A DNA stretch of 63,829 nucleotides, filler included, from Collodictyon triciliatum (lineage: Eukaryota), in the NCBI GenBank assembly GCA_043381765.1. It is 4 parts of 4 records of this genome, joined end to end, with 100 filler letters (N's around TTAATTAATTAA, not from the genome) between each part and the next. Parts side by side here need not be neighbours in the genome. Positions count along the whole stretch, not along the records: positions 49,619 to 63,829 come from JBHJMP010001607.1; 3 more parts are not named here. The stretch is one strand, 5' to 3'. The translations under genes and the position numbers were made by a program. Positions 33,004 through 63,829 of the stretch are shown here, piece by piece (position 1 is the first letter of the stretch; every line of letters starts with the position of its first letter). The notes under the pieces were generated by a model. That model was not told the DNA's origin and searched no databases. It was given only the letters and a program-made list of their open reading frames with translations.

Positions 33004-33103
33004 NNNNNNNNNNNNNNNNNNNNNNNNNNNNNNNNNNNNNNNNNNNNTTAATTAATTAANNNNNNNNNNNNNNNNNNNNNNNNNNNNNNNNNNNNNNNNN
33101 NNN
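33004..33103. other. Artificial contig spacer N-TTAATTAATTAA-N
   Basis: Linker at 33048-33059. Confidence 0.97.
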
Positions 33104-39300: not shown

Positions 39301-42300
39301 TCGTAATAGCCATTTAGCTGTGCTAAGCATTTGAACCACAGCTCGGAATCGAATACGCAAATTAGGTTTATCAGCTTCTCTGTCTGCATTTTTTTCAGAA
39401 TAATAATTATTTGAAAAGTAAAATATATAATTCAATACATTTTTATTTCATTCATAAAAAAAAAAAAAGCAAATAGTGAAGAAAAAAAAGGTAAAGAACA
39501 TGTATTAGTGAAAAAAATCATACCAAGAGAGACACTGCCAGCTATCGGAGGCTTCAATATCATTGAAACTTGATTGGAATGTTTTGATAAGCTATGAATG
39601 ACCGAGTGAACGATGTCCTTGATAGCGCTTTCCCACAAAGGGTCTTGAGACAAATGATAGATAAGCCCAATTATTTCAAGGAGAATGTCGCGGTCTCCAT
39701 CATTATAGATATTGGCTGATGGCTGAAATTCCTCAAAACTCGCTTCAGTCCCTTTCTTAGGTTCTGGTATGTGTATGTTCTGGCTATGTGTAACAATGAG
39801 ACCTTCGTGCTGGTCATAGGCTGAGTTTCGGTATGTATATCGAAGTTTAGTACATTACAATATACAAACATAATTCAGTGTATGTGAGATGGTTGGTAAC
39901 TAAAATAAATCTTGGTAATAAATCAGAAACTAGCATAAGAGTACCTGTTTCAAAAAATTGAAAATCGGCTATTTTTAAAGCTTGACATTCGAAATCTGGT
40001 AAGAAACCCAGTAGAGAATCGACATAGCTGATGGGAGATGGTCGCTGGTTTCGATAGCTGGTTTGCTTTGTGACAAAATCAATCAAAAAAGATATGGTTG
40101 TTTTTGACTTTGAACTCTGTAATATGGGCTTCAAATCAGCACTAAAGCTTAGCGACATGGGAATATATAATTGAGGTGGACAGTCTGATAAAATTATTCT
40201 GAGTAAAGGTATCATCGTTTTTTGGATAGCGTAATCTCCATTCTTGAACCAATAGAGTACAAGTTCAACAAAGCTCTCATTTTTCAAGAAAGCCAGCAGT
40301 TTTTGGTTGTTAATGAATGTACCAAAAAAGGAAACAAAGCTTAAAATGTCTGAGATCGCTTCTTCTTTCCCAGTCTCTGAACCACTGTCGTTGTACTCTG
40401 TTTTGAGTTTAAGGTTCTTTATCAAATATATCTTGAATTGCGAAATCAGTCTATTGAGTAAGTGCCTTTGGAACTGATTGAGCTCATCAAACTCTCTTCT
40501 GAATGACCTCAAAGTTATAATGCATAAGAGATACTTAAAGTATTTATTTGCCGATTCAGGATCTGATTTCACCGAGAAGGTCCCCTTGAATAGTATGTCG
40601 ATGAATTCTAGAGAACTAGACTCATCACCTTCGACTACTTTGATGGGTAGAATCCCAATAATATACGAAACAATCGGGTATGCCTCCTTGTGTTCATTAA
40701 TCATCTGAGTAATCTTAAGGAAAAGTCTATGCTTGTGGAAAACAATCAACTGTTTGGTCTTGTTGGAACACCCCTGTGAATAAATTCAGTTTTAGTAATC
40801 CAAAGAATATGAATAGTTTGAATGGATATATCGATTGGATGGTGAGAAATATCTTGTTCGATCACCATTTAAATATAGTAAGTGGTAAACAATAAATGAA
40901 AAGGTACGTATATGTCTGCTAGAAGGTCATATGTCAAGAGTCGCTTGGAAGCCACAGTAGCATGAACTGATGACATAATTTTTTTTACAATATCCATCTT
41001 GTGTTCAATTTTCTCTGTTGAAAACATCATCAGTATTTTTGAAAGCAAAATGACGCGTAACTCTCCAACATGTTGTCTTGCTCGTAATAGATTTGATAAC
41101 TCTTTTGCACTTGTATCGATTCGAATAATTATATTCTGCACTATATTTGGGCTTGACGTCTAGGTAGTATGATTAGATTGTTTAGCTGCATAAAGGAGCG
41201 TACATATGACAAAAGAGTGTTTCAAACTTGTGTAACCAGTCTAAATATTTTACATAGCATATGTATCATCATATCTTCATAGTATTATGTATAGGAACGT
41301 TTTGTATATGCACTTGAATGCAATGAGCATGAGAGCGTACTTAAAATTGATTGAATGAAGTAAATACAAAATCAGAAACTTACATCGACATTCCCGCTCG
41401 ATAGCGATGACCTCTGTCGTATAAATGACCACAGCTGCTTCACTTTTGACGTGTTTTCTTCGGATAGAAATTCCATCGAAGGAGACGTTTCCAAGACCCG
41501 ACCAGCACCTTTGTTGGAAAGGATTAGTTAACGAATAGTCATAATCAATTACTGTAGATGAAAGTTGTCTGTTCTCAAGAAAACCGTTTTGACTCACTGG
41601 GTCCGCTACGGTCTTGTCCTCGCATGAGCGCAGGTTTTGTCGGGGGTGCAGAGAGTTTAGGTGCAGATTTAGACTCCTCTTTAGGTTCTTTGACATTGAC
41701 GAGTGGGTGCATACTCATAATCAGCTGGCTTCTGTCATCTATCTCTGTGAGGAAATCCTCAAACATCTTTTCAAACCTATTTTGAATAGGTAAAAAAAGA
41801 GCAAATCGGAAGTTTGATTATCTCTTAACTTGCACGAAATTGTTCATAGGGTTTTAAAATGTCACTTTTTTTATTTGATATTATTGTAAAATGGTATAAT
41901 TATCAAATACATACGCATCCTCTGATATTTGCATGAAATGTTGTTTCCTTTGAACGATGAATGATAGAATCTAATAGAGAAAAATGGGAAGATAGTTTTG
42001 AGCGGTAAATAAATTGTTTATGTCAATCCCATTTTCAAAAAAATAATAATTGAGCAGCAATAAAAGTAACTTATTTGGCTCATGGCTACAATTAAACATG
42101 GGCAAGAGATTTTTATACCTGCAGCATGTTGGAACATATGGGCATTATAGTGGAAGGGAGGATTGGCTGTTGGCTAGATTCGTTTGCCTCCTTGAGCTTC
42201 TCACAATATGACTTTAGGTCATTTTCATGACCAAAAACATGAATGTTAGCCGCGATGCAGTACTTTAGTGTTTTCCAAACTATTAATTTTTTAACATTCC

Positions 42301-45300
42301 AGTGAGCAAATTTCTTTTCCCTCACGCATTTTTTTTTTTTTGGTGATGGTGATGATGGTGATGATGGTGATGATGGTGATGATGGTGATGATGAAAAGGG
42401 AAAAATAGAGAAATATACTTCTGTTGTTGATTCGCGCATGAAAGGGTGACTTTTTCATTTGTTGTAAAAGAGCTTTGTCTAATTGTGTAGGATTTGAGAT
42501 ACTCCCTTCTGAAAGGATTGTCCAGATGCTACTTGTAGTGGACTGAATATACGGGTCTTTGAACTGCAATAGGTGAACTTGATCGCTCTGTGTTGTTGGT
42601 TTACGAGAAGGAAATAAGTAAATATAAATGAATCCATATCAATACGAAACAAGCCAAATATAGGGATCAAACGAGTATAAAAATAAAAAAAAAAGGCGTG
42701 CTGTGATATTTGAATGGAACATAATGACACTTACAGCGTATTTAAAGCCTTTGGAAAATAGTTTTGAATTACACACAGATAGCGTCTCATCAGTTATAAT
42801 CGAAGGAATCAATGAAGTTGGGTCGATATTGGTAAGGTTGATACACTAATTAAGGTGATAATAGGTTGAGTCACTGTATATGTTTCAAAAACCAAATTAT
42901 ATTCCAAGACAAAAATAAGATGCATTTATTTTGTTCTAGAATACGGCGAACTGTCACCATGGAAACTTTGTAGTATTGATTTCTTGACTTATTTGGTTTT
43001 AAAGAAAGGGCAACCAGATGAGGATATAATGCAAATATGATGGATAATTTTAAAGAAAAAAAAACCTTTTCGACAATACTGTCTGCAAAGCTGGGCTCGA
43101 TCTCCCTCCAAAATTGAGGACATTCAACTTCTTTGAAACTGTCATACCGAATGAGAACGCATAAATCTATTAGCTCAGATAGAACTGCGGGTGACATATA
43201 TTTAACGTTCGCAAACGCAACATTGGTTGGTGTCAAGATTACTTCGATGGAGCGAAGAAGTAAGAGGGTTTGTTGGAAGTGAGAGACCAGTATATGTTTT
43301 GGAATAGATTCCTTCTTCAAGCAGTGAGCTTTCGACCTTTGAATGTAAGATAGGCACAGACTTGAAAACATATTCATAGTGCGTGTATTGAACGGCGCCA
43401 GGTCAGATTCTCCTAAAGAGAAGGAAATGAGAGAGTCCTTTGTGTAAAGGTCTTTGAATTTAGCCGATGAACTAGTTTTCCCAGATTTTTCTAGAATTTG
43501 GGATAATCTCATGAGTGGGCTGTGGTCAGGCTCGATGGACACAAAGTTGACCAGGTACTTTCGATTCATCGGATGACCAAGTAGAATGGATACCTCTTCG
43601 GGAGAATAAGCAGTGCACCATTTCAAAAGACTCCAGAAATTGGCAAGGTATTCTTGGCCTGCTAATTGAAACTGAACAGATGCAGAGAATGCCAGCTCCA
43701 AGTATTTTTGAAGCAAGTAGCGGGGACCTTTTTGATTCAAGGTTTGAGCATTTGAGTAAAGTAATGAGCCGAATGAGGATATGGTAAGCTGAGCCGCGTG
43801 CTTCAAGTCTGTCTCAATTTTCATCTCTGTTCTGCCTTTTTGTGCCTTTAGAAGACCAAGGTTGAGATGGAGTAAATGCACCAATCGGCCAAGCACAGGG
43901 GAATACATTAAGAAATTTTCTGAGCTCAGATTGCTTTGCTTGATAAATTCGTCAATAACCTGAAATAAGCTGATAAAGAAATCGACACTAAGGTCCGGAA
44001 CAAATGAAATTGAGACCGGTTTTCCTGATGGCTCCAAGTATTTGGAGTACAGTTCAAAGCAGTCGCATATTTTGATAACAAGAGCTGTTAGTGTTTTCAA
44101 GTAAGTGTCCCACTCGTCGAAGTGGGAAAATTCAGAGCCCTTCTCCAAGTCATATGATACGAATCTTTTTCCTCGGGTAGAGTAGCACCACAATTTTTTG
44201 TTCTGGAATTCGTGGCAGACCGAATCACCTGAAGCGATGAAATAGAAATATTGGTGTTATACGGTATTTACATTTTGCATATAACATGGATTACTCCTGA
44301 AACAAATTGAAAAGCACAGAAAAATTGAGAAAAAAATGCAAACTTGAGTGAAAGATTGAGCCTGCATTAGGGTCCATGTCAAAGTCACCGTTAAACACTC
44401 CATTAGCACCAAAGACTCGGATCACTACTTTATTATTGCCTTTCGATATGTCGAAGTAGCTTTGTGGCGAGAACATAACTGTTGACTCAGCAAGGGTGAT
44501 AACAATACTATTTGCTGCGAGGTCAGCAAAAGACAAGTGAGCCTGTAGAATCTATGATTTTAAGGGGTTCAAAAATTAGAGAGAGAAAAAACGATGAGAG
44601 TACCCCGTTCCAGATTTTTCACCGTATGATTTTAATGCAATACTCTATTCAAACAGAAATTTGGATGAAATATAAATTTTCAAATTGGGATTGAGATACT
44701 TCGACGGCGAAACGGATTTTGTTATGATGAATATGTAGAAAGAAGAAATTATTAAAATAAGCTGCGACAAAATTTGGAGTTATAATTCTATTCAGATCGG
44801 TTCGAAACCTGCAGTTGCTCAGGCGATTCTCCTGTAGTGTTTATTGAAAAAAGGCCGCTACGGATTATAATATGTGACAATAGTTAGAAAGGAAGTATTT
44901 TTTTGTCATTTCCTTTTACTATCAAAGAATATTCAATGTTATGTGATAGTAAACTTGCCTATCACCATTGTAGGATAGTATTTGTCCTTTCCAAGCCGCT
45001 TCAATTAAAGGAACAGGGGACGATTCCAAAAGGCTGTTGGATGAGGGGTCAAAAATATGTTTCTGATATGTTACTCCTGACTTTGTGTACATCCGCGGTG
45101 CACCAGACCCTAAAATTTATTTAATTCAGGGTTAACTATTTGCCTGTGCTTCACTCGAGAATATAAAGTATACTTGAAGTAAAGATCTTATTATCATAAT
45201 TTTTTCAAGAATATATTATGTGATTCGGAGCAGCCGTTTGATGTTTTTTATTGAGCTTGGAAAATATTTTTCTTTCATTCGATTCAAAAAAAAAAGTCGG

Positions 45301-46571
45301 AAATAGTATTTGTCTCTGATTGGAAATGCACCTGAATAAAATGGCACGACTTGATAGGAATCACATGAGGAATCTAACGGCATTTGTATTTCTTCCCATC
45401 GCAAAGCATCAAGCTTCAACTTCATGATTTTTTTGTTGGAGGAAGTAGAACCATTTGTTGGATAGAGCACAATATTATTCTCACAGAACTGGCCCTGATA
45501 TGAAGAGACATCCACACTGGGATTGTTACCAAGCTCTAGTTCCATCCAAAAGAGACCACCAATATCAAATATGTGGACTTTTTTCATCGGTAATTGGCGT
45601 TCATTTTTCCCGCCAAGCAAGTAAATCATAGTTGGCTCCACGAAGACTATGACGTGATTTCTACGTCCAGGAGGCATATCACCTTCAGCATCATATCTCA
45701 TCCAACTTCTGATTGAAATGTCGTACACGAAGATGTCGCTCTAATACATAGATGACTGTTGTGAATAAAATACACATGTATAAATAAAAGAGCAATCGTT
45801 AGTGTTTTCATGGTGGGTGTTATGGGCTAGACCTCTGGTTCATCTCTGAGACAAATCAAAATGTGATTCAAGAACTGACCTTGTAAACATTTCCATCGTA
45901 TCCTCCAACAAGATACATCGAGTCCCCGATAATTGTTACAGCGTGGCCGATTCTTGGGGATGGTGTAGATGAACTTGATGGTACCAACATCCACGACCAG
46001 TTATCTGCATGAGTGAATTTCTTAGGAGAGACGAACAAACAAAGACGAAAACAAAAACAAAAAATAAAATAAAAACCGAAAGAAAGGATAAATCGATGAA
46101 TAGAAGTGTGCGTGGAGGTAAGATTCAGAACAAACGCTCAAGAAGAGACAAACCCATGTTAATTTCGATTAAATTGTCGGTTAGCTTCCACACTCCTTCA
46201 TTGTACACTTCACCCCCAAATATGATTATCTTATTGTAGTATGAAACCCATGAGAATTGGCGAATTTGGGGCAGAGGTTCAGGCTTAAGTCTAACGTCCA
46301 ACCAAGGTTGAATTGTTTTGAGAGATGTGGTTTCTGTGAACACAGGCGGTTTTTGAGTCATCTTTGCATCCTTTTTTGATGCCAGAAGTTTCTTTGATAT
46401 TATTGTAGAGCAGGCAGAGCAGTATATAGATTTCATAGCTGCATGCTCGAATACTGGTCCAGTAAAGTTGTAGCGCCCACATTCATGGCAATAAATTGAG
46501 TTTGTTGAAGTAATTTTACTTGGCTCGATTATGCGTCGGTGGGATATATGAATGAATGCATCTACATGGAC

Positions 46572-46669
<98 letters not shown>

Positions 46670-49294
46670 AAAAAACATTTTAGATCGATTATGTATCTGA
46701 AAAAAGTGTACAGTTGAGATTTCTCTTTTCCCTTCTTTCCTAGAGATTTTTCAGAGGAAAGGTAGAAAATGAATCTTCTCTCGCTGTTTAGTTGTTTTCT
46801 TCTGGAATGGGTGAGTGTTATAACTACCTAAATCCGGTGTCAGGGTGTATCGGTCAATCGTCACTCTAAATGTAAAAGAAAATTTGACTTTGGGTTATAT
46901 ATAAGATAACTCATCGATAATACATTAAAAAAAACTAGTATTAATGCAAAGCTAATTACAATCATGACGTCTATATAATTTAAATTGTTTGACATATACA
47001 TATTCGGATAAGCGGAATCTACTCGAACAGCTTCAATTATAGATTCTGATGCTTGTACGATAGATATCGTTTTCATCGATTTGGTGGGCTCCTGCAAACT
47101 TTGCAGCTCTTTGTGGACTTCCTCAGAAAGCAAGACATCAAACTTTCGGCCAATCTACATGACATATGATAAATTGATTGTGCTATGGTTAGTCTAATTT
47201 CTTGTGCTAATATGGTTATTGTTCGCATTTCTATAGTGTTTATTTTCTATAAAATAAAATAATGAAAAATGAAAAATGAAAAAAAGGAGGGGGAGGGGAG
47301 GGGGAGAAGGGGGAAGGCATCAGTCACCAATACCTTCAACGATTCTTTATCCACAAGTATGGGTGCAAAAATTAATTCAGTGCAGACAAAAACGAAAAGT
47401 TTCGACCTTATTGACGACAAAAAAAACTTTGGCTTTTCCCCAGTTAAAATGCACGCAACACTTTCATGTAAAATCAAATTTTCAGAGGACTGGTATATCT
47501 GAGCCCTCTCCGTATCATGGTACCCTGTTCCGATCTTGTATATGGTAGATTCCAACTCAACAAAGAAGTAAGCACCATCTGTAGTAAAGTTTGAGTGTCC
47601 AGAATCTGGTAATCCAGGGCATTCAAAGGAATCCAAAAATGTATTCGAACCCCCTGTAAAGTGTTGATAGATGTATTATTGGGTATATGAAAAGGATGAC
47701 AATTTGTTTGCTTATATTTTCCAACTTTTCAAAAATGTTGATGGTATTCAAAAATTGATTAGATATCTGATTTTAGAGGAAGGTGGTTTGAAAAGTACGG
47801 CCATATGGATACGCAACTAACCTAAAGGAAAAGAACCATCGTCTAATCTCCGAATGTCAGGGAGAGATGAATTGAGCCATTCAGAAATAGGTGTATTGGG
47901 GTCAAATATGAATCTTTCTCGCTGCCCCCTCGAAATCCCTTCCAAGTGACCTTTTAAGAGATTTTTCATGTGTTTCACCATTGAGGAGTGTGAATAAGCT
48001 GCAAAATCCAAACAAATTTGCAGTCTGGTAATCTCTGAGAAGATTTGTGTCGAATCACAGCTTTGAATGAGTTCCTCAAGAAATTCCTGATGTATTCGAG
48101 GGTAGCAAAATGGAAATTAAATACAAGATAGGAATTCTTTTCAAAGCGAGTATAGTTATATGATAGCTGAAGAGTCGTGGGTTAAACTCCATAGTAACAA
48201 TATGTCCGTTGAATAGATGATAATTACTGAAATTGATGAGATCGTCTGAGCGTGAAACTTCTTCCATTCTCCTTCTTTGGCACTAATCAGCATAGGAATT
48301 ATGGTTGACAGGAATCTGTCTCTCAGCTCAGAAAATAGGGCCTACAAGACAATGGAAGTCAATTAAATCAAGAAAATGAACAACAGCTGGTCCAACAAGG
48401 AGTAAAAAAAAAATTCTCATCAGCACATGATTGTGTGTCAAAAGACCATCAGCATTAGATCCGCAATTACCGAATCATTTTGGCGGCGTGTACTTCTCAG
48501 TAACGGTAGCAAGAATTGTTGTAAAATGGATTGAAGTAGGGAGACCTCTTGGTTGACTATGTCTGATATCTAAGATAAAAATAAATGTTAAAATTAAACT
48601 GAGAGCATCGATTAATCATCTGTTTTTTACGACGAAATATTATTGCTCGCCATATCAAGCGAACTATTACAGCATAAAGGTTTGGTAATTTTATACTTAG
48701 TTTGTAAAACGTATGTGGTATGGGTAGAATACATACAGGATTTGCGTTGAACAGAACACCGATGGCCTCTTCGTTGAAGAAATCGTCAGGTGAAACTGAT
48801 ATAATTTGAGCGAATCGAGATGAACTGTCCACAGGTTCTTTGTCACTGAAAGTGTAACCAAATATCGAGAAAAAAATTCAGAATATTAATAATGGAAAAA
48901 TATCCCTTTGTGTTGATATGAGATGGAAAAAAAATGGCCCATGGACTATGGTGTGTCCTTTCATGGACTTGATATATGAAAATTAAGTATTGTATCCAAC
49001 CCATACACAAGCGGTAACAATTTTTGAAGTTCATTGATAAATTGCTCGAGCTCGGCATCCTTTAGAAAATCATCAAGTAATTATTCGATAAAAAAAAAAA
49101 AGCATCGTATACAAATAGATATTGACCATGGGGAAGTGTTTTCAGTAGAAGAAAAAAATCATACGTTTTCTGTTTGGACTGGTTTCTTCCTCTTGTGTTG
49201 GAGAGTAGGAGGTACTGGTGCGTCTAAATCGCTAGTGTATGAGTCAAGAAGCTTTCTTTGGCTCAAGATTTCGACAGGGAGTCGAATGAAGTAC
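33305..49294 (-). CDS. Giant HECTD4-like E3 ubiquitin ligase (CxxC-CxxC finger, Kelch repeats, SPRY, SH3-like, HECT N-lobe); 3' truncated by the contig end, 5' end uncertain
   Basis: TTDGAYFFVE...IYKIGTGYHDT (~47520-47590, HECTD4/PHR-like region). CHECG...CSAC (~46410-46490). Kelch motifs KIIIFGG, SPRIGHAVTIIGDSMYLVGG, PPGRRNHVIVF..IYLLGG. SPRY motifs LYYFEVTI, DDVIGVGW...IFFTKNG, LYPAF...KANFGRDAFQFD. HECT start GGPYRDSVASVCNELQS...LFIQCPN...NRWIINPS, GKLIGIA, FFWKKLV. The catalytic C-lobe is not in the contig. Confidence 0.85.
46576..46665. repeat. (AG)n microsatellite, intronic
   Basis: Perfect array seen directly. Confidence 0.95.
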
Positions 49295-49518: not shown

Positions 49519-49618
49519 NNNNNNNNNNNNNNNNNNNNNNNNNNNNNNNNNNNNNNNNNNNNTTAATTAATTAANNNNNNNNNNNNNNNNNNNNNNNNNN
49601 NNNNNNNNNNNNNNNNNN
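49519..49618. other. Artificial contig spacer N-TTAATTAATTAA-N, flanked by TTTTTATC and GAAAGA repeats
   Basis: Linker at 49563-49574. Confidence 0.97.
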
Positions 49619-49819: not shown

Positions 49820-51090
49820 ATGGCAGAGGACACGGAAAACCTAGAGGAATTGCGTCTGATAACGCAAGACAAAGACATTGTCACCCTCAAAAAACGAACT
49901 TCGCTGCATCTTGGGTCACCCTTCAATAGTATAACACTTTCTGCCATGCCATCAGGGGTTTGGAAGCTTGAAGAACTCAACGACTTACAGCTTTGGGGGA
50001 ATCAGATTTCTTGCCTTTCTCCAGATGTATCGAAATTAAGTGACCTGAAAGAGCTTCGCATAGAAAAAAACAAACTTACTTCGCTACCTCCAGAAGTGTC
50101 CTATTGGACAAATCTTGTGCATCTCAGTGTCGATGAAAATCTTTTGTCATGTTTGCCCCTGGAAATATCCCGCTTGATATCGCTCACTGAGTTGCGCATC
50201 AGCAAAAATCAGATTACTGCTATACCACCAGATATATCCACATTAACCTCTCTGAGAAACTTATTCCTTTATGAAAATCAAATTTCTTATCTACCTCCAG
50301 AAGTATCAAGACTGATCAATCTAGAAGGACTTTATGTTTTCGGTAACCCAGTAAGAACTATAAAATCACTTGAATATTCCTAATATTTTGATGTTATCTC
50401 AAAATCCGTTTTTTTTATGGTGATGGCGATAATAATAATGATAATAATACACTTACAGATAGAAGAGCTACCACCACATATTACAGCGCTAACAAACCTG
50501 AAAAAACTCTTTATTGAGAAAAGTGGGAAGATTAACATTAAGCGATCACCAAGTGGAATATCTAACCTCCCATGTTGGAACCATCTGGAAGAGCGTGATC
50601 ATTTAGGCTTAACCATTGCTCGCTCTAATGCTCTGAGAAAGATGCAGCTTTACGACATTGTAAGTGGTAACTAATCTACAACACAAATTTTCGAAATAAG
50701 TTAATAATTTAACAAATAAAGGATGATATCCTGAAGCCAGGATGGGTTCCGAATGAAATATTTCTTCGATTGCAATCATTGGATTTCACTGGAAAGGGTT
50801 TATCTGCCCTACCAGATAACATTTCCCTCTTGATGAACCTGCGATATCTTAGTATCAGCCAGAATAAAGTACAAATGACCACATTAATCTATAATGTCGT
50901 TAAGAAAAATATTATTACCATACTCTCTTTCCTATCAAAACAGAATAACATACCTTGTTTCATCGTAAACATTATTAAAAAAATAGTTCAATCAGCTCCC
51001 CGTATTTGTGCGTCATTTATGCCTTGTAGATTTTCTCGACCTGTCGTACAATCAGGTATACATCACCTTATTCACTACAATCAACGCCAA

Positions 51091-51173
<83 letters not shown>

Positions 51174-54100
51174 NTACTACTACTACTACTACTGTTTTAT
51201 TATCATTATCATTATATGAGCATGATAATAAGCAAATTGCTTTAATATTTTTTATGTTTATTTTACCACTATTCCTAGATATTTCTACTATCTGAGAAAA
51301 CTTCAGACCTGAAGAAAGTATCGAACATCAATCTCAGTCACAATAAGGTACTAGGCAATGTTGTAATGATTTTTCTATTTTTTTAAAAAATAAAAATCTA
51401 TCTCTGATATCAACTGACACTGAAATTTTCTCTTTCGCATTATTTTTTTTAAAAAAAAAAAAGTTTATCCAATTTCCGATCCCTATATTCGCCATGACGA
51501 GGATGGTGAAATTAGATATTTCCAACAACCAGGTTTATTTTTGGAAAATAATGCAACCCTGAGTATTGTATTTTTTTGGATACGGAACAGCACGTCCATT
51601 TTGATGTAATAATATTCTCTCAAAATTAGATATCTTTATTGCCTGAAAAGGCTTCAGCTCTGAAGAATATATCAAACCTCAATCTTAGTCACAATAAGGT
51701 ACTAGGCAATTTTGTCATGATTTTTCTAGTTTTTTTTTTAAAAAAAAAGTATGAGGTATATGTTATATCAAGTGACACTGAAATTTTCTCTTTCGCATTA
51801 TTTTTTTTTAAAAAAAGTTTATCCAATATCCGATCCCTATATTCGCCATGACGAGGATGGTGAAATTAGATATTTCCAACAACCAGGTTTTATATTTTCA
51901 TTATATGATGCTATCATCTTCAGGACGGAGAAAATCATACATTTCTTTATTTTCATGTTAGATATCGACATTTCCGGACAGATTATCAAGTTTAACAAAC
52001 CTAATTCATATCAATATGGGCAATAATAAAGTATCTACATTATATTATTATAATATTTTATTATTATCATCTTTATAATGTATTGTGGCCTTTCTTTGAT
52101 ATTAAAATGCTTGAAGTTTAATCAGGTACCTTCATCTATCTGCAGACTAAGTTTGTTGGCAACTATAAATGTATCAAACAATCAGGTAGATATAAAACGT
52201 TTTAATGGGTATGTCATCGACACACATAAAGTAAAATCAACGCCTATTCATTGTCAAAAATATGAATTTCCTTTCATTTATTACTATTTTTACCTTTCTT
52301 TTTTTAGATTTCTTCTCTACCGGCTAATGTATCCCTACTGAGCAATCTTACATACTTGAATATCACACAAAACAAGGTTGCTTGCTCCTACTTGATCATC
52401 ATTTTAATACAAAACAAAATTAAACAAAGTTCATAGATATCAAGAATTCCAAATTTAAGAGGTCTAGCCCATCTCCGAGAGTTTTACACGTATCAAAATA
52501 CATTTCCAGCCCTCATTCAACAGTTTCTAGATTCTTTGAATCTATCAAAACATGATGATATTGAATTTTCGAGTAAAGAAATCAAAGAGGTGCCAATCGA
52601 AATATCGTTATTGCCTATCAAGCCTAGGAGTGTTTATTTATCTAAAAATGAGGTTCACACTTGTTAATAAATAATATTTTGTAAAAGCTTCTCCATTTTT
52701 CACCAGACATGTTTAATAAACATTTTTTTTAAAAAAAATAATTAGATAACTGAAATCCCCTCATGGTTTGGCGAGTTGACCTGGATTGAAAAACTTGATA
52801 TCAGCCACAATAAGGTCATTTTTTCTATTTAAATGTAATTCCTAAAATTACTTTTTCGTAACTCGAATCATAATTTGTCATCTTTATCATCGAATATTTG
52901 TGATTTTACAAATATTTATGTTTACAATTTTTAGTTAAGTTGAGTAGGTAACCAAATTAAGATTCCAATTTATTTTAACAAGAAAGTGACAAATATTCGA
53001 CTCACGCAAATTCTATTATCTTTCCTTCAAATACCAACATAATTATTTTTTTTAAAAAAAAACAGGTTGTTATGTTGCCTGTGAATATGTCTCTTTTGAC
53101 CAATATGACCTATCTGAATATGAACACAAACAGGGTAAACTCCATTAAAAAATCTATTTTAGATACAAATTAATTAAATACTCCCTAATTGCGACTTTTT
53201 AAGATTTCAAAGCTCCCTGATATGCGAGCTATGAAGAACATGAGGGAATTGAATGTCCGACAAAACGCATTTCCTTATGCTATTCAGCAGTTTTTGGACT
53301 CCGTCTATCTTGCAAACAGCATTGTAAGTTATTCAGGGAAAGGAATCAGAGAGATTCCTCAAGAGATGATGTGGTTACCTATTTCACCAAGCAGCATCGA
53401 CTTTTCAAAAAACGAAGTAAATATGATCATTCTGATTTCCTTGTTATAAGTTGTCTATCACACAATAATGCAAAGTCCATTCAACCGTTCTTTTTTTTTT
53501 TAATACTACATTAATTTTTTTTTTAAAAAAAAAAAGTAAAATTGTATTTTTATTATCAGATATCCAGTATCCCGAGATGGATTTTCGAAATGACATCGAT
53601 TGAAATCATACATATCGGCCATAATAAGGTTCACATGCTTTCCATAGATCTGAACACCAAATTTTCTCCAAAAAAAACTTTCTTGGTGGATATATTTTCT
53701 TGAAAATGCTTCATCACAGCAAAATTTCAAGAAAAAATGTTATCTGTTTTGTGTATCACATAATAAACCTTTTTCATATAGACATCAATTTTAATTTCAC
53801 TACAGATTTCTCATCTACCGGAAGAAATATCTATTTTGTGCAACTTAAAGTGCATAGATCTGAGCCATAATAAGGTAGAAATTTATTTATTTAAAAGCAT
53901 CTAATTAATAATGAAGAAGAACTCATTTAAAATAAAAGCTAAGTCGACTCCCAGCATCCATCCGAGCGCTTGAGTCACTTACAACGTTGAATATTTCAAA
54001 CAATCAGGTACATCTAATCAATAGTAAAGAAACAATATGTTCATATTATTACGTAGAAACATTTCCCAAAATATTCTACAAAAATGGAAACACTTTAGAT

Positions 54101-54229
54101 TCCCATATTGCCGGATGAAATATCTATTTTATCAGACTTGATAAATCTTAATGTCAGTGAAAATAAGGTTGGAAATTGATCAATATAAACTATGTAGATG
54201 GCTCAGTTTTAAATGCGAATGATAAACTT

Positions 54230-54275
<46 letters not shown>

Positions 54276-57200
54276 ACACTTTTTTTTTTTTGTAGTTAAA
54301 TCAATTTTCTGCATCCATAAATACCTTGACACAACTACATATTCTGGATATTTCGCACAACCAAGTTTGTTGTAAAAAAACATTTTAAATTATGTAGTTA
54401 CATGCAGTTTTAACTTTCTTATTATTGATTATTAACAACAACAATAATAATACAGATACCTTCGTTGCCCGAAGATATATCAACCTTAAGAATCTTAAGA
54501 AACTTCAACGCTAGCCATAACAAAGTAAGCAATAGCAAAATACACATAAAATCGTTTTACTAAAATCTTAAATAAAAATATAAAATAATCTATTCATATA
54601 GTTAAAACTTTTTCCTGCATCCACCAGTACGATGACTCTGTTAGAAACTCTCGACATTTCAGAAAATCAAGTTTTTATTCAAATTGAAACACATATAATA
54701 GTCCTGAAGCTGATATTTTTCAAAAAATAGGTCCTTAATTGGTCTCATTACAAAGTCATGCTTGTGTATTCATATCATACAATAAATTCAATTCAAACAG
54801 ATAACATCATTGCCAGAACATGTATCAATATTTGGAAATATGAGGCATTTAAATACTGGTTATAATAAGGTTATATTGTGACCATCAAAATAAAGTGTTG
54901 AATAAATGAGGTTAACCTTAGATATCATATAGCTTAATCATTTGGATCCGAGTATCAGTGGGATGACCTCCTTACAGACTCTCCAAATTTCGCACAATAA
55001 GGTTTTATGTGAATATGAGGAAATCATATACACTTCAATAATTCATGTTTTTTAAATTGCATTCAATTGTTTGATTAGATATCTAAAATTCCCGAGGAAG
55101 TATCATCCTTGACAAATTTATTACATTTTGACTTCAGCAAGAATAAGGTATGTATATAATTAAAATGAAAAATCTGAATGTAAGATATATTCATGTACTG
55201 AATTTCTGATTCAATGTTCAATAAAATTAGTTTCATCATCTACCGATTTCTATTCATAAAATTAAATCAATGGTGGAACTCAACATTTCTGAAAACCAAG
55301 TAATTTTTCTCGTGATTAATGTTTTCTTTAAAGATTGGTCACTTGTTAGATTTTATTTTGGATATATCAAGAGTCTAATGTAGTATAAATAGATTTCTTT
55401 TCTACCAGAGGAAACATCAGTGCTTACGAATCTAACAAAATTAGACATTAGTCATAATAAAGTTATTTTCGATTCATAAAACCTAATGATTACAATAACA
55501 ACAGTAATAGTTATAAGAGACCCTAAAATTTATCTCCATTAAACTCCAGACAAAGACGGATATTTTAAAAAATAATCCACTTAATACAAATAGTTCGGCC
55601 ACTTTCCCATATCCATACACACTATGACACTTATCGAGAGTCTAAATGTGTCAAATAACCAGGTTTATTTCAGTTATAGTATTCTTTTATTGATAAATTT
55701 GTTCTTATTATAAGATTGTATTATAGAACTATTTTCTGCAAACATTAGATTGTTTACATACCTGACTCAATCGTCGGTCTCTTAAATCTCAAAGTATTGG
55801 ACTTGTCCAGTAATAAGGTTATTCCTGTCATATGTATCTTGAATAATCCAAAGGTGTAATCAATTGCCTCAAGCATTTTTCTATCTTGAAATAATGAGAT
55901 TGTTTTGGCTATAAAACTTTATTATAAATGACTTTTTACAATCTTTCATACAGATTGGCACTCTCCCATCATTTCTCGCAAAAGTCGAGACATTGAGAAA
56001 TGGATTATTTATTCAAGATAATCCGATTAAAAACATTCCAGCCAACGTCATTAGAAAAGACTCTGGGGCAGTGTATGATTTTTTAAAAGCTTCTGCAGAG
56101 GGGATAACTAGATGGACAAATGGAAGGCTTTTGCTCCTTGGAGAAGGATTTGCTGGGAAAACTACCCTCATCAAATCGATCATGCAAAAGCATCTATTCT
56201 TCAAAAAAACTACTGACCTAGACAGAGAGAGAACTAATGGCATCGCGCATGTTGATATTGATGAATCTATGATGGGCGGACTCTTTCAGACAAAAATTTC
56301 TATCCGGATTTGGGATTTTGGTGGACAAGAAGACTTTCAAGTGACACATCCTTTTTTTCTTTCATCCGGGGCACTGGTCTTGATTTTATACAGACTTGAT
56401 CAAACTAAGGATAAAAATAACCTCAGAAGATGGATCAAAATGCTCGATGACTTTGCTCCTGGATCTAAAATCATTATAGCTGGAACCCATCATGACAGGC
56501 AAAACCCAGAATGTAAGCGTGAAATGCTTGAACAAATTGCAAGAATAAAAAAAGATAATGAACAAAAAAAGGAAGAGGCCAAGCGCCACATATTCATCAA
56601 CACAGAATTACGTGTGAGTAACAAGACTGGAAAAAGAATTTCGGACCTGAAGAGAGCTATCCATGGAGGAATGATGAGACTTGATAACATAAACAAAGAC
56701 GTACCTAAAACATATGTCAGGCTGAAAGAATATCTAGAATCTAAGGGACAATTAATGAAATACGAAAGCATTCAGGAGACCTATGAATTCGCAGAAAAGC
56801 AATTGAAAATGGATCGTGGCCAATGTGACAGTGCTTTGGAATTCTTGCATGACCTTGGCTCCATAGTTTGGTACTCCTCTTTTAAAAATGTTAAGGACAT
56901 TGTCTTTCTGGATCCCCTCTTCCTCATAAACATCTTTCGGTGTGTTTTTAGTTTCAAAGGCGTTGAAAAAAGCACGGATGGGATTGTCTTGCTTAATCGG
57001 CTGAAAGAAAAAATTAATAAAGAATTGAACGTTGGATTGGACGAGCATGTATTTAATACAATTATCAACATCTTTGATCATTTTGGATTGGGGATTAATT
57101 TCAATAAGGAGTGTATTGCTTTTCCATCCTTAATGGAAGATTGTAAAAATCTTGCAGCATTATGGAATAACGCGCCAGAGTCTAATTGTGTGTCTGAAAT

Positions 57201-60200
57201 ATCGATAAAATTAATAACCCATGGTGAAATCCAACTTTCAGACAAAAGCAACATAATTGTCCAAGCCCTTCGCTTGACCAAAGGTGCGCCATCTGGTATT
57301 CAATTTGAAGACCATTTTTTTAAAGATGTAGCTCTAATTCACTTAAAGGCTCGCTATCTCCAAGAAGCAAGTGATGTCAAACTACTTCCAGGGAATTCTC
57401 TGATTGTATTATGCCGCATCCTTTCTGATAGAATTTTAATTAAAATTCGTAAATATGATGATGATTTCGACGAACGCAATCAATTTGTTCGTATTTTTCA
57501 CATATTAAACTTTTTCGTCAGAGAGATATCAAGCATTCGACAAAACTTCATCAAGAGTTGTAAAATGAGATGTCCGCATTGCCGAAAAAATCGCGTCAAA
57601 GGTTATGTTGTAACCACAATCAGAATGAGTCATACAGATATGAATAAATGCACAGAAGGACACACGCTTGATCCGGAATTTGTGAAACAAGGTCGTGTGT
57701 ATCAAGAGGAAGGTAGATTATATTCTCCAGTTGACATTTTTTTAAAAAAATAATAAGACAAATATATTTTTTTTATAAATTAGATAATACCCCTCATTTA
57801 ATGTGGAAATTGCACATCATTACAATAACATTCATTTTTCCTCTTTATTTTACATGCAATCATAATGGAATATCATTATTAACCACGTCCTATACAAAAA
57901 GGAATCTCTAAGAGATTCAACTCTGCAATAAAAGTAAAGAAGAAGAAAAATCAAACTCCTGAATCTATGTCATACCTAACTTCAATCGAGCAAGAGCTAA
58001 ATCAATGGAAGGATGTATGGATAAATCAACCGGTGGAATTGATCGAGTATATTGGTAAAGGGGCTTACGGCAGAGTTTATAAGACGTACCACAAAGAACA
58101 AGATGCAGTTGTTAAAATTCAAAATATAAAAGGGTGTTGGGAACATTCCATGGGCGAGATAATTGAATCTCTCATACATGAAACAAAGTTCCTGCATGAA
58201 TGTAGCGAGCACGAGAATATTGTAAAGTTATTTGGAGTGTATCGGAAGGATGAAGACTTTTTCATGGTAATGGAGTATGCTGGAATTTCGTTAAAAACAA
58301 AAGTTGAGAGAAAAAAGGAAGTACTTGATATTTCACAAGTACTTTCCTACTCGAAGCAAATTTGCATGGGAATGAATTTTATGCACTCCAGAAATCTGTA
58401 CCATGAGGACTTAAAGGCAGACAACATCATGATAGTAAATGAAAATGTGAAGATAGCAGATTTTGGAATAGTCAGCCGCCGTGAAGCTGAAAAGGTTGGA
58501 TCCCTTCTACCGACTCGATTCGGTGAGGAGAAGCAAGGGGGAACGTCAAATTGGCAGGCCCCCGAAATTCATGAAGTAGTTTGTAAGCCTCATTTCTTAG
58601 ATGGAGCTATTTACGGTGAAGAAGGAAATAATATAGGTCATAGAGGAGAACCAAGCAATGTGTATGCTTTTGGGATGCTGCTATGGTACATGTTTTCTGC
58701 TATTGAGCCATTTAAGAATGAAACACAACCGCAAGGCTTTATAGTGAGAGGTTTGCGTCCTGAAATTCCACCAAATACCCCACTTCATTTTCGGCATCTT
58801 ATAAAGGCCTGCTGGAAACAAAATTACAAACTAAGGCCGAGCTTGAAACAAGTGCAAATTTACATGGATGAGTCTTTTTCAGATCAACGAGAAGTTTGTT
58901 CCAAAAAAATGATTGAAATTTTGCCAATAAGATATTCTCAATATACAGATATGTATCGCAGTGAATTCGTGGAATGGCTGGGTGATATTTCGTATACAAG
59001 GTTAGCAGAGAAGATATCTGATGAGAATTGGGATAAATTTTGTGATATTCAAGAAAAATGGAGCGAAGATAATATGATCCGTATTTACCATATCAATCGG
59101 TCTGATGTATCTGCATTTCTTAACTTATCTGAACAGAGTATAAAAGAATGCAGCTCCAGCTCTAAGAAAAAAAGTATTAAAGAGCTCAGCTACTATCAGA
59201 TCACTGGTCATTTATCATCGATGAGTGATGAGTTATCTAAAAGATTGCTTGAAAAAATGAGAGCTTTGAAACTTAATGGAGATATTATATCTAAACTTGA
59301 CCAACCAGACATATATGCGAGGTTTTCATTTTCTGAAAACGATGTCTCTTTTGCTTCTCAAGTGATCAATGACGAAACAAAATTAAGTGGGGGCGTGGAA
59401 CCCCATCTTTCGTGGGACAGTATAGGATATTCCCAATTCAGAGATATTCTGCAATTTGATGCCAGATATACCCCTTACTGCCATGGAATACAAAATGCAA
59501 CATCATTGTGGCTGGGTTCGATGAATTTATTCCAGCTCCCGGATTCTTTGAGCAATTTGACCAACCTTAGAAGGCTTTATTTGCACTCAAACAAGGTGTG
59601 ATGTTCTAAATATGCAAGTGATGTAATAAAATTTTGATATACATATCTGTAAACAGCTATTGCGTTTAATTATGAAATTTCTACATAGATAACTTCAGTT
59701 CCTGGGCTGTTCCACTCTCTGACAAATTTGATAACGTTGGACTTATCAGACAATATGGTATGGCATCAATAAAATAAATTGTAAAACTTCGTCCTTTCAG
59801 GGAACTCAATGAGTAATAAGCATATCTTCTCAGCTCTGAAATAATGTTAATGATATTAGAAAAAAATAGTTTGTTGAAAAAAAAAGTAAAGCATATTGTA
59901 TCTAATTTTCCAGATATCTATCGTGCCCTCTGAAATTTCTTCCTTGACCGCTCTGTCACGTTTGGATGTATACGAGAATCCGGTTACAATTATTTTCGAT
60001 GGTTGTTGGGAAAATATAGCCAAATTTAACACAATTCTATTGATTGTAGATGCCAGAGCTTCCGGTCCAAATCACATGTTTGAAATGTCTATGTCATTTG
60101 GGCATTGTTGGTAAATCAGGAGAAGTTTGCATAAAAAAAGCGCCGCGTGGTGTCATCGACTTGCCTTGTTGGAAGGAATATCGTTGCCCTGATTTTATGC

Positions 60201-60299
60201 AGATTAGGGAACTGACCCTCTATGAACATGAAGATCAGGTACTCGTACTAATATCTTTTCGATGATTCACAGCTTACTGAATCTTTTAATTATCCATAG
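49820..60299 (+). CDS. Roco-family kinase: LRR array / Roc / COR / zinc ribbon / TKL-like kinase / SAM-like / second LRR block; about 35 exons; stop at 60263-60265 or 60297-60299
   Basis: LRR exons 49820-55818. Roc: GEGFAGKTT, WDFGGQ, GTHHD, VSNK. COR: LEFLHDLGSI, VFLDP. CPHC..CTEGH. A phase-1 splice (57712/57902) joins in frame to the kinase: GKGAYG, VVK, HEDLKADN, DFG, APE, GLRPEIP, CW..RPS. Further LRR exons at 59500-60238. Confidence 0.92.
51091..51193. repeat. (TAC)n microsatellite in an LRR-array intron
   Basis: Tandem array seen directly. Confidence 0.95.
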
Positions 60300-61556
60300 T
60301 AACCATCGGCCGACTGAGTCTGCATCTGCATCTGCGTCTTCTTTGACAGCAAATTGCATACGATGCTCACGTTCTTGAGAGAAACATCCAACCTCCATAA
60401 TATTCTTTCTCTCCTGCTCGCGAGAGCCAACAAGATTGTTTTTTTTTTCGTTTCTCACCTACTCGCGAAAGAGCCAATAAGAGCTCGTTTTTCGCCAGAC
60501 ATTCGAATAAATGAATACTGAAATATCACATATTTTTTTCATCTCTTTAACGAGCCGGCATTGATTTGAAGAATTTAATGAAAGATTAAAAAAAAGCAAC
60601 TAAAGGTGAATAAATTATGCTGTTCGCCTAGCTTGTCTGTTTGGTGATAGGACGTGCTCTTAACATATTAAGTAACAATAATAATAAAGGTGAATGAAAA
60701 AGACGGAGCGAGCTCAAGCCACGGACCCATAGGTAGAAGGATAATTATGAATATAGTGCTCAGTATAAGTTTCTCTGATTCATTCACCCATTTCTTCTTT
60801 TTCTTTTTCCTTTCTCTTCGGTCTCATTCAACCAGTAAATGGATTAACTTTATTACAAAGGTTGTGACGAACTTGGTTTTATCCCTTTCAAGGCACAACA
60901 CTTTTTGTACAACGAAAGTGTACCTATTTATAGCAGTTTATTGCACAGACAACCATCGAATTAAATATGGGTTGACGAAACCAGGAGCTTTGATGAACCC
61001 AAGAAGCAACCTGAATAATATAATATACGATTAGAATATATAACAAGATTAAAAAAGACTTCATAATCTCATTCTATTCCCGTAATCAATTTAAATTTTA
61101 TTTCTAATTTTGTAATATTAATCCAAAAATTCAAAAATTGCAAACAAGCCTTTGCCTTGGCCCAGAAAGAACCCACCCTATAAACCTTCCATCAAACATG
61201 CATTTCAAAAAAGCATTCTATCCACACCTGCGGCGGTAACCATGTTGCTTGGGGCCGATATGTTGACTTTCAGTCGAAATGGCTATACAGCCGTCTTTTC
61301 GAACTCGCAAAATCAGCTCTCAGAGTTATACCTCAAATCACTTGTAAAAATAAATAAAAACTTGATGTGTCTGATTGCCACAATGCGCACATTTCGAGGG
61401 TCTCGGTAGATGCTTAATTTTAACTGAATTGATTTTGTGCAGTTTTTTTTTTTTTTAATATTTTAATTACTTATTAAATTGACTGATTGACTAGAATTTA
61501 TTAAAATTGAAAACTCGGTAGTTTTCTAAAGAAAAAAGTAGACCAAAGACTTTCAG

Positions 61557-63727: not shown

Positions 63728-63829
63728 NNNNNNNNNNNNNNNNNNNNNNNNNNNNNNNNNNNNNNNNNNNNNNNNAGAAAAAGAAAAAGAAAAAGAAAAA
63801 GAAAAAGAAAAAGAAAAAGAAAAAGAAAA
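63728..63829. repeat. Assembly gap without linker followed by (GAAAAA)n
   Basis: N run 63728-63775, then a tandem array. Confidence 0.9.

Follow-up and report, generated by a model that had tools for sequence, protein, structure and literature searches.

A Roco gene of the freshwater protist Collodictyon triciliatum, a relative of Diphylleia rotans, is intact in the order LRR-Roc-COR-kinase-LRR, with a predicted product of about 2,266 amino acids, and carries an array of 24 exons of exactly 69 nt, each of which codes for a single LRR. We consider it probable that the product is a cytosolic Roco kinase whose LRR arm grew by old duplication of a repeat unit and now acts as a constrained, constitutively spliced scaffold; we infer the constitutive splicing, the cytosolic location and the scaffold role. 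Within the literature searched, exon-per-LRR Roco genes have so far been described only from brown algae, and the gene presented here is a second case.

The gene and its predicted product

The window, i.e. the whole stretch of DNA that was analysed, comprises 63,829 nt. The gene model within it consists of 35 exons that join to 2,266 codons with no internal stop, and all 34 introns are GT-AG and in phase 0. Two tentative 3' exons, the last two listed below, are included in this model and have no transcript behind them. The GC content is 35.5% in exons versus 25.1% in introns. From the N-terminus, the predicted product shows an LRR arm of about 990 aa with about 40 repeats, the Roc GTPase, COR, the protein kinase and a short C-terminal LRR arm. 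The exons outside the array are:

49820..50350, + strand: exon 1, with the probable start codon (ATG 49820), a leader and 6-7 LRRs; intron-free, ending after N-P in phase 0, donor after 50350
50459..50659, + strand: exon 2, one LRR and a non-LRR module ending in L-P-C-W
50722..50868, + strand: exon 3, a linker and one LRR, 147 nt, ending Q-N-K and then GT; AG/GT flanks, open frame
55954..57729, + strand: Roc-COR exon, 592 aa; donor alternatively at 57712
57913..59595, + strand: kinase exon, 561 aa; acceptor alternatively at 57902
59689..59757, + strand: 69-nt LRR exon 3' of the kinase, class A-like (profile E = 0.0023)
59914..59982, + strand: 69-nt LRR exon 3' of the kinase, class A-like; shares 62% nt identity with exon 20
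60050..60238, + strand: tentative exon, an LRR and L-P-C-W module that repeats the exon-2 module at the C-terminus (aligns locally with exon 2 at a score of 95); AG/GT flanks, open frame
60350..60400, + strand: tentative terminal exon, containing the stop codon

Exon 1 matches the Pfam models LRR_4 (6.1e-19) and LRR_8 (7.8e-16). As the first-pass annotation had it, Roc-COR and the kinase each occupy one long exon. In the Roc-COR exon, Pfam identifies Roc (2.4e-19) and, directly after it at exon residues 251-385, COR-A (7.4e-14), with no separate COR-B match at E <= 0.01. The Roc motifs are intact: the P-loop reads G-x4-G-K-T, the switch II DxxG reads D-F-G-G, and G-T-H-H-D forms a G4-like motif whose T-H-x-D we take to match that of LRRK2. 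Among solved structures in the PDB, LRRK2 is the best match to Roc-COR (8e-19, residues 42-401), and the Chlorobium-type Roco also matches (4.5e-17). The kinase exon contains the kinase domain, a roughly 230-aa stretch without assignment and the first C-terminal LRR, which ends in S-N-K and then GT. The kinase (Pfam Pkinase, 1e-41) is TK/TKL-like and possesses the G-loop, the beta-3 Lys, the catalytic Asp, DFG and APE. Its catalytic loop reads H-E-D, with Glu instead of Arg before the Asp, and is thus of the non-RD type. Homology searches with the kinase exon returned no close homologue; the best hit was a giant-virus kinase at 27% identity. Roc together with COR places the predicted product in the Roco family, and the kinase lies C-terminal to COR with its catalytic residues in place.

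The nearest relatives are the Roco transcripts of Diphylleia rotans in EukProt EP00002 (P0042/P0001, P0002, P0003, P0004 and P0005), at 29-35% identity. Roc-COR is 33-35% identical to theirs, and P0042 is collinear over both the LRR arm and Roc-COR. The spliced model product aligned with the transcript-derived P0042 in one HSP over model residues 112-1392 (E = 1.6e-151), and this single-HSP alignment supports the exon joins of the model. The N-terminal leader, the L-P-C-W module and a long module of three LRRs are shared as well: the N-terminus resembles those of P0042, P0004 and P0003, and the exon-2 L-P-C-W module also occurs in P0002-P0004 and P0042. By contrast, the D. rotans proteins, which are known from transcripts alone, carry DUF4062/AAA-type or PH-type C-termini (Pfam) in place of the kinase. 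Short contigs from two small-share sequencing sets, one tagged "RNA?" as a guess and one a freshwater metagenome, matched the stretch in nine cases, with no splice joint among them, and covered only a minor part of it. One 363-nt contig of the "RNA?"-tagged set runs unspliced, with two differences, from exon 19 through exon 20 into the beginning of exon 21, both introns included; as its introns are retained, it behaves as DNA and is uninformative on splicing and expression. Scanning the metagenome with Roc-COR gave one locus at 22% identity, probably an unrelated Roco. An Rfam search of the whole window gave no match.

At a distance of 18 kb there is a second Roco gene, and this degree of clustering counts against the scaffold reading. 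The LRRs of the second gene are encoded in long exons, and it has lost the P-loop and DxxG. This loss, together with that of the conserved Pro in the second exon of the array, would fit a decaying, non-functional duplicate in which the regularity of the exons is a fossil. However, the gene is free of stops over 2,266 codons and 35 exons, all 34 pairs of splice sites and the catalytic motifs are intact, and dN/dS stays below 0.4. Such a pseudogene is extremely improbable, and we rejected this reading on the open 35-exon model with its intact splice sites.

The cassette array

The array spans 50987..55817 (+ strand) and contains 24 exons, each an open frame of 69 nt between AG and GT whose 23 codons make up one LRR. 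Two longer exons lie between them:

50987, 51279, 51464, 51630, 51818, 51962, 52117, 52308, + strand: starts of 69-nt exons 1-8
52746, 53066, 53560, 53806, 53939, 54099, 54296, 54456, + strand: starts of 69-nt exons 9-16
54602, 54801, 54933, 55079, 55231, 55393, 55594, 55749, + strand: starts of 69-nt exons 17-24
52437..52652, + strand: long exon in the array, 216 nt, 72 aa, about 3 irregular LRRs, phase 0
53204..53416, + strand: second long exon in the array, 213 nt, 71 aa, 3-LRR, phase 0
51091..51193, + strand: (TAC)34 microsatellite in the first array intron

These units were identified by scanning positions 50600-56200 for stop-free 69-nt frames between AG and GT, which yielded 25 candidates, 24 of them LRR units. 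The remaining one (54978-55046) arises by chance where exon 19 runs into its intron, and is not an exon. At lengths of 60, 63, 66, 72, 75 and 78 nt the array region held 4, 7, 6, 0, 1 and 4 candidates, respectively, compared to 25 at 69 nt, and 200 shuffles of the region gave on average 1.5 and at most 5 candidates of 69 nt. A profile built from the 69-nt exons recovered all 24 array exons. The 27 array introns are GT-AG, in phase 0 and 60-251 nt long (median 93). Every unit is interrupted at the same position, directly after N-K/Q/R: N22 is invariant, and it is followed at the exon end by K (14 exons), Q (nine) or R (one), with AAG or CAG as the final codon in 18 of the 24. Exon 2 of the array is the one that lacks the conserved Pro. 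The layout of 24 such exons with phase-0 GT-AG introns had been described in the first-pass annotation and is confirmed by the scan, the shuffles and the 34 uniform introns. Two of the four exons it gave as examples were exact, while the other two were one base off and correctly lie at 53806-53874 and 55749-55817. Its point that any cassette may be dropped or duplicated in frame also holds, all being symmetric phase-0 exons of 69 nt.

Three features go beyond that description: the two long exons break the array, the N-terminal LRRs are intron-free, and two further 69-nt exons follow the kinase. Single-LRR exons thus number 24 in the array plus two after the kinase, and LRRs are not arranged one per exon in exons 1-3, in the two long array exons and at the end of the kinase exon.

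Growth of the array

The 69-nt exons fall into two alternating classes, A (I-x-x-L-P ... N-K) and B (F/L-x-x-F/L-P ... N-Q), in the order B A B A B A B A [long] A A [long] A A B A B A B A B A B A B A. All 26 have their best partner within their own class, and nucleotide identity is 0.52-0.53 within versus 0.41 between classes. The array hence grew by duplication of a two-exon unit. In the account that we prefer, this unit consisted of one class A and one class B exon with phase-0 introns after the N-x position, and unequal recombination produced many tandem duplications of it as well as a duplicated three-exon super-module. The latter consists of the 216-nt long exon with exons 8 and 9 and has a homologous module in D. 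rotans P0042/P0001. The 213-nt long exon, flanked by exons 10 and 11, represents an older duplicate, with 68% nt identity between exons 9 and 11 and 59% between exons 8 and 10.

Judged by the identity of about 52% within classes, most cassette copies are old. Only one exon pair exceeds 80% identity, and introns are unalignable among units except in one recent pair, which belongs to the following tract:

51276..51900, + strand: recent tandem duplication or gene-conversion tract, A exon, intron and B exon (exons 2-3 versus 4-5)

Within it, 68 of 69 nt agree between the B exons and 54 of 69 between the A exons; the intron, with 98 matches in 112 aligned nt, is less similar than the B exon (Fisher p = 0.010). 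This is the only recent duplication or conversion tract visible and shows that the process continues at a low rate.

The same exon boundaries might instead stem from independent insertion of introns at a repeated proto-splice site (the A-A-G/C-A-G codon), e.g. through a mobile element that generates introns, the one-LRR-per-exon layout being a by-product. The AAG or CAG at the end of 18 of 24 exons, the introns that align only in the recent pair and the exon-1 LRRs of like repeat type that lack introns would all agree with this. Nevertheless, duplication of whole units is expected to yield just this strict A/B alternation and similarity within classes, and in the recent unit the intron was duplicated together with the exons. 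Both three-exon super-modules share their intron places, and neither in length nor in sequence do the introns resemble one another as members of a family would, for instance through terminal repeats. We therefore regard independent insertion as highly unlikely and duplication of the two-exon unit as the better account of the array.

The introns also contain eight self-complementary T(5+)A(5+) tracts:

51378, 51443, 51730, 51801, 52723, 53046, 53515, 57737 (within 51378..57750), + strand: T(5+)A(5+) tracts in introns

In five cases an acceptor site is no more than about 25 nt away. The 3,780 intron bases of this gene hold eight of the ten such tracts in the 63,829-nt window, whereas shuffled introns contain 0.16 on average and never more than 2; the A-then-T order was found in no case. 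Recurrent tracts of this kind could be relics of inserted introns, or, speculatively, could loop out cassettes. The scaffold reading leaves them without explanation.

Selection, donor cassettes and isoforms

The first-pass annotation had read the cassettes as a possible combinatorial, diversifying receptor system and had put forward dN/dS as a check. No signal of diversification emerged: dN/dS was 0.16, 0.38 and 0.23 for three duplicated exon pairs, and pN/pS was 0.49 overall (136 within-class pairs) and above 1 at none of the 23 codons, at saturated synonymous sites (pS about 0.8). For exons 8/10 (pS saturated) and exons 3/5 (no synonymous difference) dN/dS was not computable. These tests are of low power, given the 69-nt exons, saturated synonymous sites and a crude per-codon pN/pS, and positive selection at a few sites may accordingly be present. 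Conservation is seen at LRR positions 18 (N/D), 20 (S), 22 (N) and 23 (K/Q). In the beta-strand segment, positions 15 and 16 rank with the most variable ones (entropies of 3.39 and 3.22 bits), a point against the scaffold reading.

A search for orphan or donor cassettes found none in the 64-kb window. Apart from the array, nhmmer with the 24-exon profile gave 17 extra matches, nine to coding exons of the same gene, five to the neighbouring Roco gene and three elsewhere at E >= 0.11; none at E < 0.1 was intronic or intergenic. Similarly, none of seven comparisons between D. rotans isoforms showed an indel of an LRR unit (23 aa). Across the family, the LRR arm ranges from 246 to 990 aa (246-981 aa in D. 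rotans), and in the closest D. rotans pair it is 30% identical, compared to 56% for Roc-COR. In these sequences the LRR arm diverges faster than Roc-COR, and a diversifying arm would look alike.

Combinatorial use of the cassettes would mean that skipping or alternative splicing, together with shuffling between paralogues, creates many specificities in an intracellular, immune-like kinase receptor. The gene offers the structural half of such a system: any subset of its symmetric 69-nt cassettes stays in frame, the recent tract attests to one duplication or conversion, the same-class LRR exons beyond the kinase suggest intragenic movement of cassettes, and the arm is far more plastic in length and sequence than Roc-COR across the family. 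The kinase is non-RD, a type that is linked to innate immune signalling across kingdoms in the account of PMC8463890, and the brown-algal precedent comes with documented splice variants (as given in PMC11378527). For the function, however, direct support is missing, and the available tests lean against it: most cassettes are old and diverged, dN/dS and the per-codon pN/pS give the values reported above, strand positions 18, 20 and 23 vary little, the window holds no orphan cassettes, the neighbouring Roco paralogue keeps its LRRs in long exons, and the D. rotans isoforms lack cassette indels. The receptor reading is thus unproven, and we judge it unlikely. A more specific version, in which U(n)A(n) pairing loops out cassettes to give LRR-arm isoforms that gate the non-RD kinase, would make the gene a convergent combinatorial intracellular sensor in a Diphylleia relative (CRuMs-type). 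We consider this doubtful to a still greater degree; if true, splice-based receptor diversity would have been invented a second time, convergently, by a unicellular predator.

The constrained, constitutively spliced scaffold is the reading that we prefer. Purifying selection would maintain the mostly ancient copies as components of a single long solenoid, and by analogy with LRRK2 and the Dictyostelium Roco kinases, the LRR arm may serve as a binding and autoregulatory scaffold that controls a GTPase-gated kinase.

Comparison with known systems

LRRK2/LRRK1 and the Dictyostelium Roco kinases share the order LRR-Roc-COR-kinase with the gene described here. They differ in that identity amounts to only 20-27%, in that ankyrin, armadillo and WD40 domains were not found here, and in that this product has a far longer LRR arm, an extra C-terminal LRR arm and an H-E-D loop instead of the RD type. 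The literature searched gave no exon-per-LRR structure for either group.

Lamprey VLRs are assembled from banks of silent donor LRR cassettes that lie beside an incomplete gene. Modular LRR cassettes are common to both systems, but the gene here is complete and the window contains no orphan cassettes; as no silent cassette bank occurs in the window, assembly of this type was rejected.

Gonadotropin receptors likewise encode one LRR per similar-sized exon, with phase-2 introns and about nine units, through duplication of a prototype exon, according to the description in PMC11378527. One LRR per exon, in-phase introns and growth by duplication are the points of resemblance, and in the receptors the layout plays no part in generating diversity. 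Those units belong to the extracellular domains of animal GPCRs, are only about nine in number, have another intron phase and stand without Roc-COR.

The closest parallel, already drawn by the first-pass annotation, is real: in the brown algae Ectocarpus and Saccharina, LRR-ROCO genes carry one LRR per exon and show tandem exon duplication, and they underlie the proposed algal receptor-diversity system, as presented by Zambounis et al. 2012 (PMC3341825) and Teng et al. 2024 (PMC11378527). The algal exon-shuffling genes are further characterised by frequent exon recombination within and between genes, with near-identical exons and reservoir LRR loci, and by positive selection on concave-face residues; of such recombination, the present gene shows one recent tract. 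Both layouts place the LRR arm N-terminal to Roc-COR and build it from tens of equal-sized, symmetric one-LRR exons. The algal exons, as described in PMC11378527, measure 72 nt with phase-2 introns, whereas those of C. triciliatum measure 69 nt with phase-0 introns, and the boundary falls directly after N-x here and two residues further on there. The algal proteins are LRR-ROC-COR only, in contrast to the kinase and C-terminal LRR arm of the present gene. In addition, the cassettes here are mostly old, with no positive selection detected at the saturated sites and no reservoir loci in the 64-kb window, and the host lineage is unrelated. Taken together, these differences in exon size, phase, boundary, domains, cassette age and host suggest an independent origin of the layout, and the gene is probably a convergent variant of the brown-algal one.

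A second case in an unrelated and poorly sampled eukaryote lineage, with another exon size, phase and boundary, suggests that amplification of an LRR unit with in-phase introns is enough to produce the layout convergently. Since the cassettes here are old and constrained, architecture alone is no evidence of diversification. The implications for the brown-algal hypothesis run both ways, and C. triciliatum would lend itself to work on cassette splicing, as a simple unicellular system in which the output is directly a kinase.

Architecture of the 69-nt LRR exon array

A scan of positions 50600-56200 for an AG, a stop-free stretch of 69 nt and a GT returned 25 candidates, and translation of these matches yielded 23-residue leucine-rich repeats (LRRs) in 24 of them. 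The remaining candidate, 54978-55046, overlaps exon 19 of the array and its intron and was rejected as spurious. In the same region, lengths of 60, 63, 66, 72, 75 and 78 nt gave 4, 7, 6, 0, 1 and 4 candidates, and shuffling the region (n = 200) gave a mean of 1.5 candidates of 69 nt with a maximum of 5; the 69-nt exon pattern is far above chance. Exons are richer in GC than introns (35.5% vs 25.1%), and the introns between exon 3 of the gene model and the Roc-COR exon (n = 27) range from 60 to 251 nt in length (median 93).

The full model of this Roco kinase gene comprises 35 exons and 2,266 codons with zero internal stops. At the Roc-COR/kinase junction a phase-1 alternative (57712/57902) is equally good, and the last two exons are tentative. 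Pfam places LRR families in the intron-free first exon. The other main features are as follows.

Features of the Roco kinase gene
52437-52652, plus strand: long phase-0 exon within the array, 216 nt, about three irregular LRRs
53204-53416, plus strand: second long phase-0 exon within the array, 213 nt, about three irregular LRRs
55954-57729, plus strand: Roc-COR exon (Pfam Roc 2.4e-19, COR-A 7.4e-14)
57913-59595, plus strand: kinase exon (Pfam Pkinase 1e-41)
59689-59757, plus strand: 69-nt LRR exon 3' of the kinase
59914-59982, plus strand: 69-nt LRR exon 3' of the kinase

The first-pass annotation had described 24 exons of 69 nt with one LRR each, which holds and is now extended by the two long array exons and the two 69-nt exons behind the kinase. 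Two of its example coordinates were exact, while two were one base off and correctly read 53806-53874 and 55749-55817. Its phase-0 GT-AG introns recur in 34 of 34 introns of the model, and their position after N-K/Q/R is confirmed by an invariant N22 followed by K (14 exons), Q (9) or R (1). It was also right that Roc-COR and the kinase occupy one long exon each; at 1.7 kb apiece, these mark the dense introns as a local peculiarity of the array.

Domains and relatives in Diphylleia rotans

The P-loop and DxxG of Roc are intact, as are the G-loop, beta-3 Lys, catalytic Asp, DFG and APE of the kinase. The catalytic loop (58400-58420) reads H-E-D, not H-R-D, which makes this a non-RD kinase, a class tied to innate immune signalling by PMC8463890. 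Among solved structures, Roc-COR best matches LRRK2 (8e-19), and the kinase best matches tyrosine/TKL types such as EGFR, JAK and RIPK1 (about 1e-22). The C-terminal end of the gene (60050-60238) repeats the N-terminal LRR and L-P-C-W module (50459-50659; local alignment score 95), so that related LRR arms flank the Roc-COR-kinase core on both sides.

The five best Roc-COR matches are all Diphylleia rotans transcripts from EukProt (33-35% identity), beyond which scores drop from 1e-51 to 1e-24. A DNA primase exon of the window (13781-14110) also has its best match in D. rotans, at 73% identity; the window accordingly belongs to a Diphylleia relative distinct from the source of those transcripts. 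The spliced model aligned to one of these D. rotans Roco proteins, P0042, in one HSP across model residues 112-1392 (E = 1.6e-151, 29% identity), which supports the exon joins. Both share the N-terminal leader, the L-P-C-W module and the three-LRR long module. At their C-termini the D. rotans Roco proteins have DUF4062/AAA-type or PH-type regions in place of a kinase; a search with the kinase exon found no close homologue, the best match reaching 27% identity. A literature search for Diphylleia with leucine-rich repeat returned nothing.

Duplication history of the array

Two classes can be distinguished among the 69-nt exons: class A starts with I-x-x-L-P and ends with N-K, and class B starts with F/L and ends with N-Q. 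They follow the order B A B A B A B A (long) A A (long) A A B A B A B A B A B A B A. Each of the 26 69-nt exons has its closest partner within its own class, and mean nucleotide identity is 0.52 for A-A, 0.53 for B-B and 0.41 for A-B. This pattern is the mark of a two-exon unit duplicated repeatedly in tandem and of a three-exon super-module duplicated once (exons 8-long-9 vs 10-long-11).

In the sole recent event, the unit 51276-51545 recurs at 51627-51900. Mismatches between these copies number 1/69 nt in the B exons, 14/112 aligned nt in the intron and 15/69 nt in the A exons. Similarity is significantly higher in the B exon than in the intron (Fisher p = 0.010), and it also differs between the A and B exons (p = 0.0002). 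Such a gradient is consistent with a recent conversion tract that has the B exon at its centre and overlies an older duplication. The remaining array introns are too diverged for alignment.

Self-complementary T(5+)A(5+) tracts, each 13-21 nt long, occur ten times in the window, eight of them in introns of the Roco kinase gene; shuffled introns contain 0.16 on average, and no tract has A(n) before T(n).

T(5+)A(5+) tracts
51378, 51443, 51730, 51801, 52723, 53046, 53515 and 57737, plus strand: introns of the Roco kinase gene
301 and 33478: outside the gene

Five of the tracts are about 25 nt or less away from an acceptor site. Two tract pairs arose as copies in the recent duplication, and the tracts preceding exons 9 and 11 may have persisted since the older one.

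Proposed diversification of the LRR cassettes

The first-pass annotation had proposed that the cassettes serve as a combinatorial receptor, with a putative role for splicing or shuffling, and had named stable exon number among paralogues as evidence to the contrary. Number is not stable: LRR arms across the family span 246, 535, 641, 866, 981 and 990 aa, and in the closest pair of D. rotans Roco proteins (P0003/P0002) Roc-COR is 56% identical vs 30% for the arm. Both this wide variation in length and the lower identity of the arm speak for plasticity.

Pairwise dN/dS was 0.16 (exons 2/4), 0.38 (9/11) and 0.23 (15/17), and was not computable for exons 8/10 (pS saturated) and 3/5 (no synonymous difference). 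Over 136 within-class pairs, overall pN/pS was 0.49, at low power since synonymous sites are saturated (pS about 0.8); with the same low power, none of the 23 codons exceeded 1 in these pairs, the highest single-codon values being 0.95 (site 15) and 0.92 (site 10). Within the strand segment, positions 15 and 16 vary (entropy 3.39 and 3.22 bits), and positions 18 (N/D, 1.41 bits), 20 (S, 1.02), 22 (N, 0) and 23 (K/Q, 1.18) are conserved. As the convex positions 2, 3, 6, 7 and 10 vary to a similar degree as 15 and 16 (2.73-3.39 bits), variability does not concentrate on the concave face.

A nucleotide profile built from the 24 exons and searched against the window recovered 24/24 and both C-terminal exons. 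Its 17 extra matches comprise nine LRRs in longer exons of the same gene, five in a second Roco gene and three weak ones elsewhere (E ≥ 0.11); this search found no spare cassettes in the array introns and no bank in the 64-kb window. Among D. rotans isoforms, none of seven comparisons from four Trinity genes showed LRR-unit indels. What separates the isoforms is truncation at the N-terminus, one insertion of 49 aa resembling a retained intron, an alternative C-terminus in one case, and point differences.

A second sample (run X1) differs at 12 listed sites (53986, 55135 and 59145-59531 included), too few for selection testing: two in exons of the array (a synonymous change and an F-to-L change at LRR position 19), eight in the kinase exon tail (five non-synonymous) and two in introns. 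A freshwater metagenome run contains short contigs identical to parts of this DNA.

Taken together, we consider a combinatorial receptor unlikely. The gene rather probably encodes a giant, constitutively spliced Roco kinase, whose LRR solenoid would have arisen as a two-LRR unit with introns was duplicated in tandem long ago, and would now be under purifying selection.

A second Roco gene and further features of the window

Further features of the window
979-5000, plus strand: ankyrin-repeat gene
13781-14110, minus strand: DNA primase small subunit exon (best match D. rotans, 73% identity)
22673-24239, plus strand: WD40 protein gene
27549-32589, minus strand: second Roco-family gene (1,322-codon open frame and 301-codon LRR frame)
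34500-47700, minus strand: large gene with SPRY and Kelch parts

The second Roco gene lies on a separate record, 18 kb upstream of the Roco kinase gene along the joined stretch and on the opposite strand. It is homologous to D. rotans P0005, a Roco protein of LRR-Roc-COR-PH type (E = 1e-30), has lost the P-loop and DxxG, and encodes its LRRs in long open frames instead of one exon per repeat. GC content reaches 73% in a patch (28001-30000) inside its open frame, which stays open across the change; the rest of the window has about 30-38% GC. The patch could stem from biased conversion, from a foreign source or from a join in the assembly.

Paired runs of 44 N with 12 bases between them (16459-16558, 33004-33103 and 49519-49618) are the filler joints between records, and a single run of 48 N lies at 63728-63775; each adjoins a low-complexity (AAAG/CTTT)-type repeat. 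The last pair, at a record edge, lies just 5' of the Roco kinase gene start, so its promoter region is partly unreadable.

Comparison with exon-per-LRR genes in other lineages

A full-text literature search combining Roco, LRR and separate exons returned the brown-algal study PMC11378527 (2024) alone, and titles and abstract openings on exon shuffling, ROCO, Ectocarpus and LRR pointed to exon-per-LRR Roco genes in no other organism. Every ROCO LRR of Ectocarpus and other brown algae occupies a 72-nt exon of its own, according to PMC3341825. PMC11378527 describes phase-2 introns, an LRR-ROC-COR layout without kinase, four positively selected concave-face sites, up to 9 splice variants, and LRR-only loci proposed as reservoirs; it also notes gonadotropin-receptor LRR exons, where one LRR per in-phase exon has no diversity role. 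Compared with the brown-algal genes as described there, the Roco kinase gene uses exons of 69 nt, not 72, in phase 0, not 2, places the exon boundary two residues earlier, adds a kinase and a C-terminal LRR arm, and belongs to an unrelated lineage. Given these differences in exon size, phase, boundary, domains and lineage, the exon-per-LRR layout is best read as convergent with that of brown algae.
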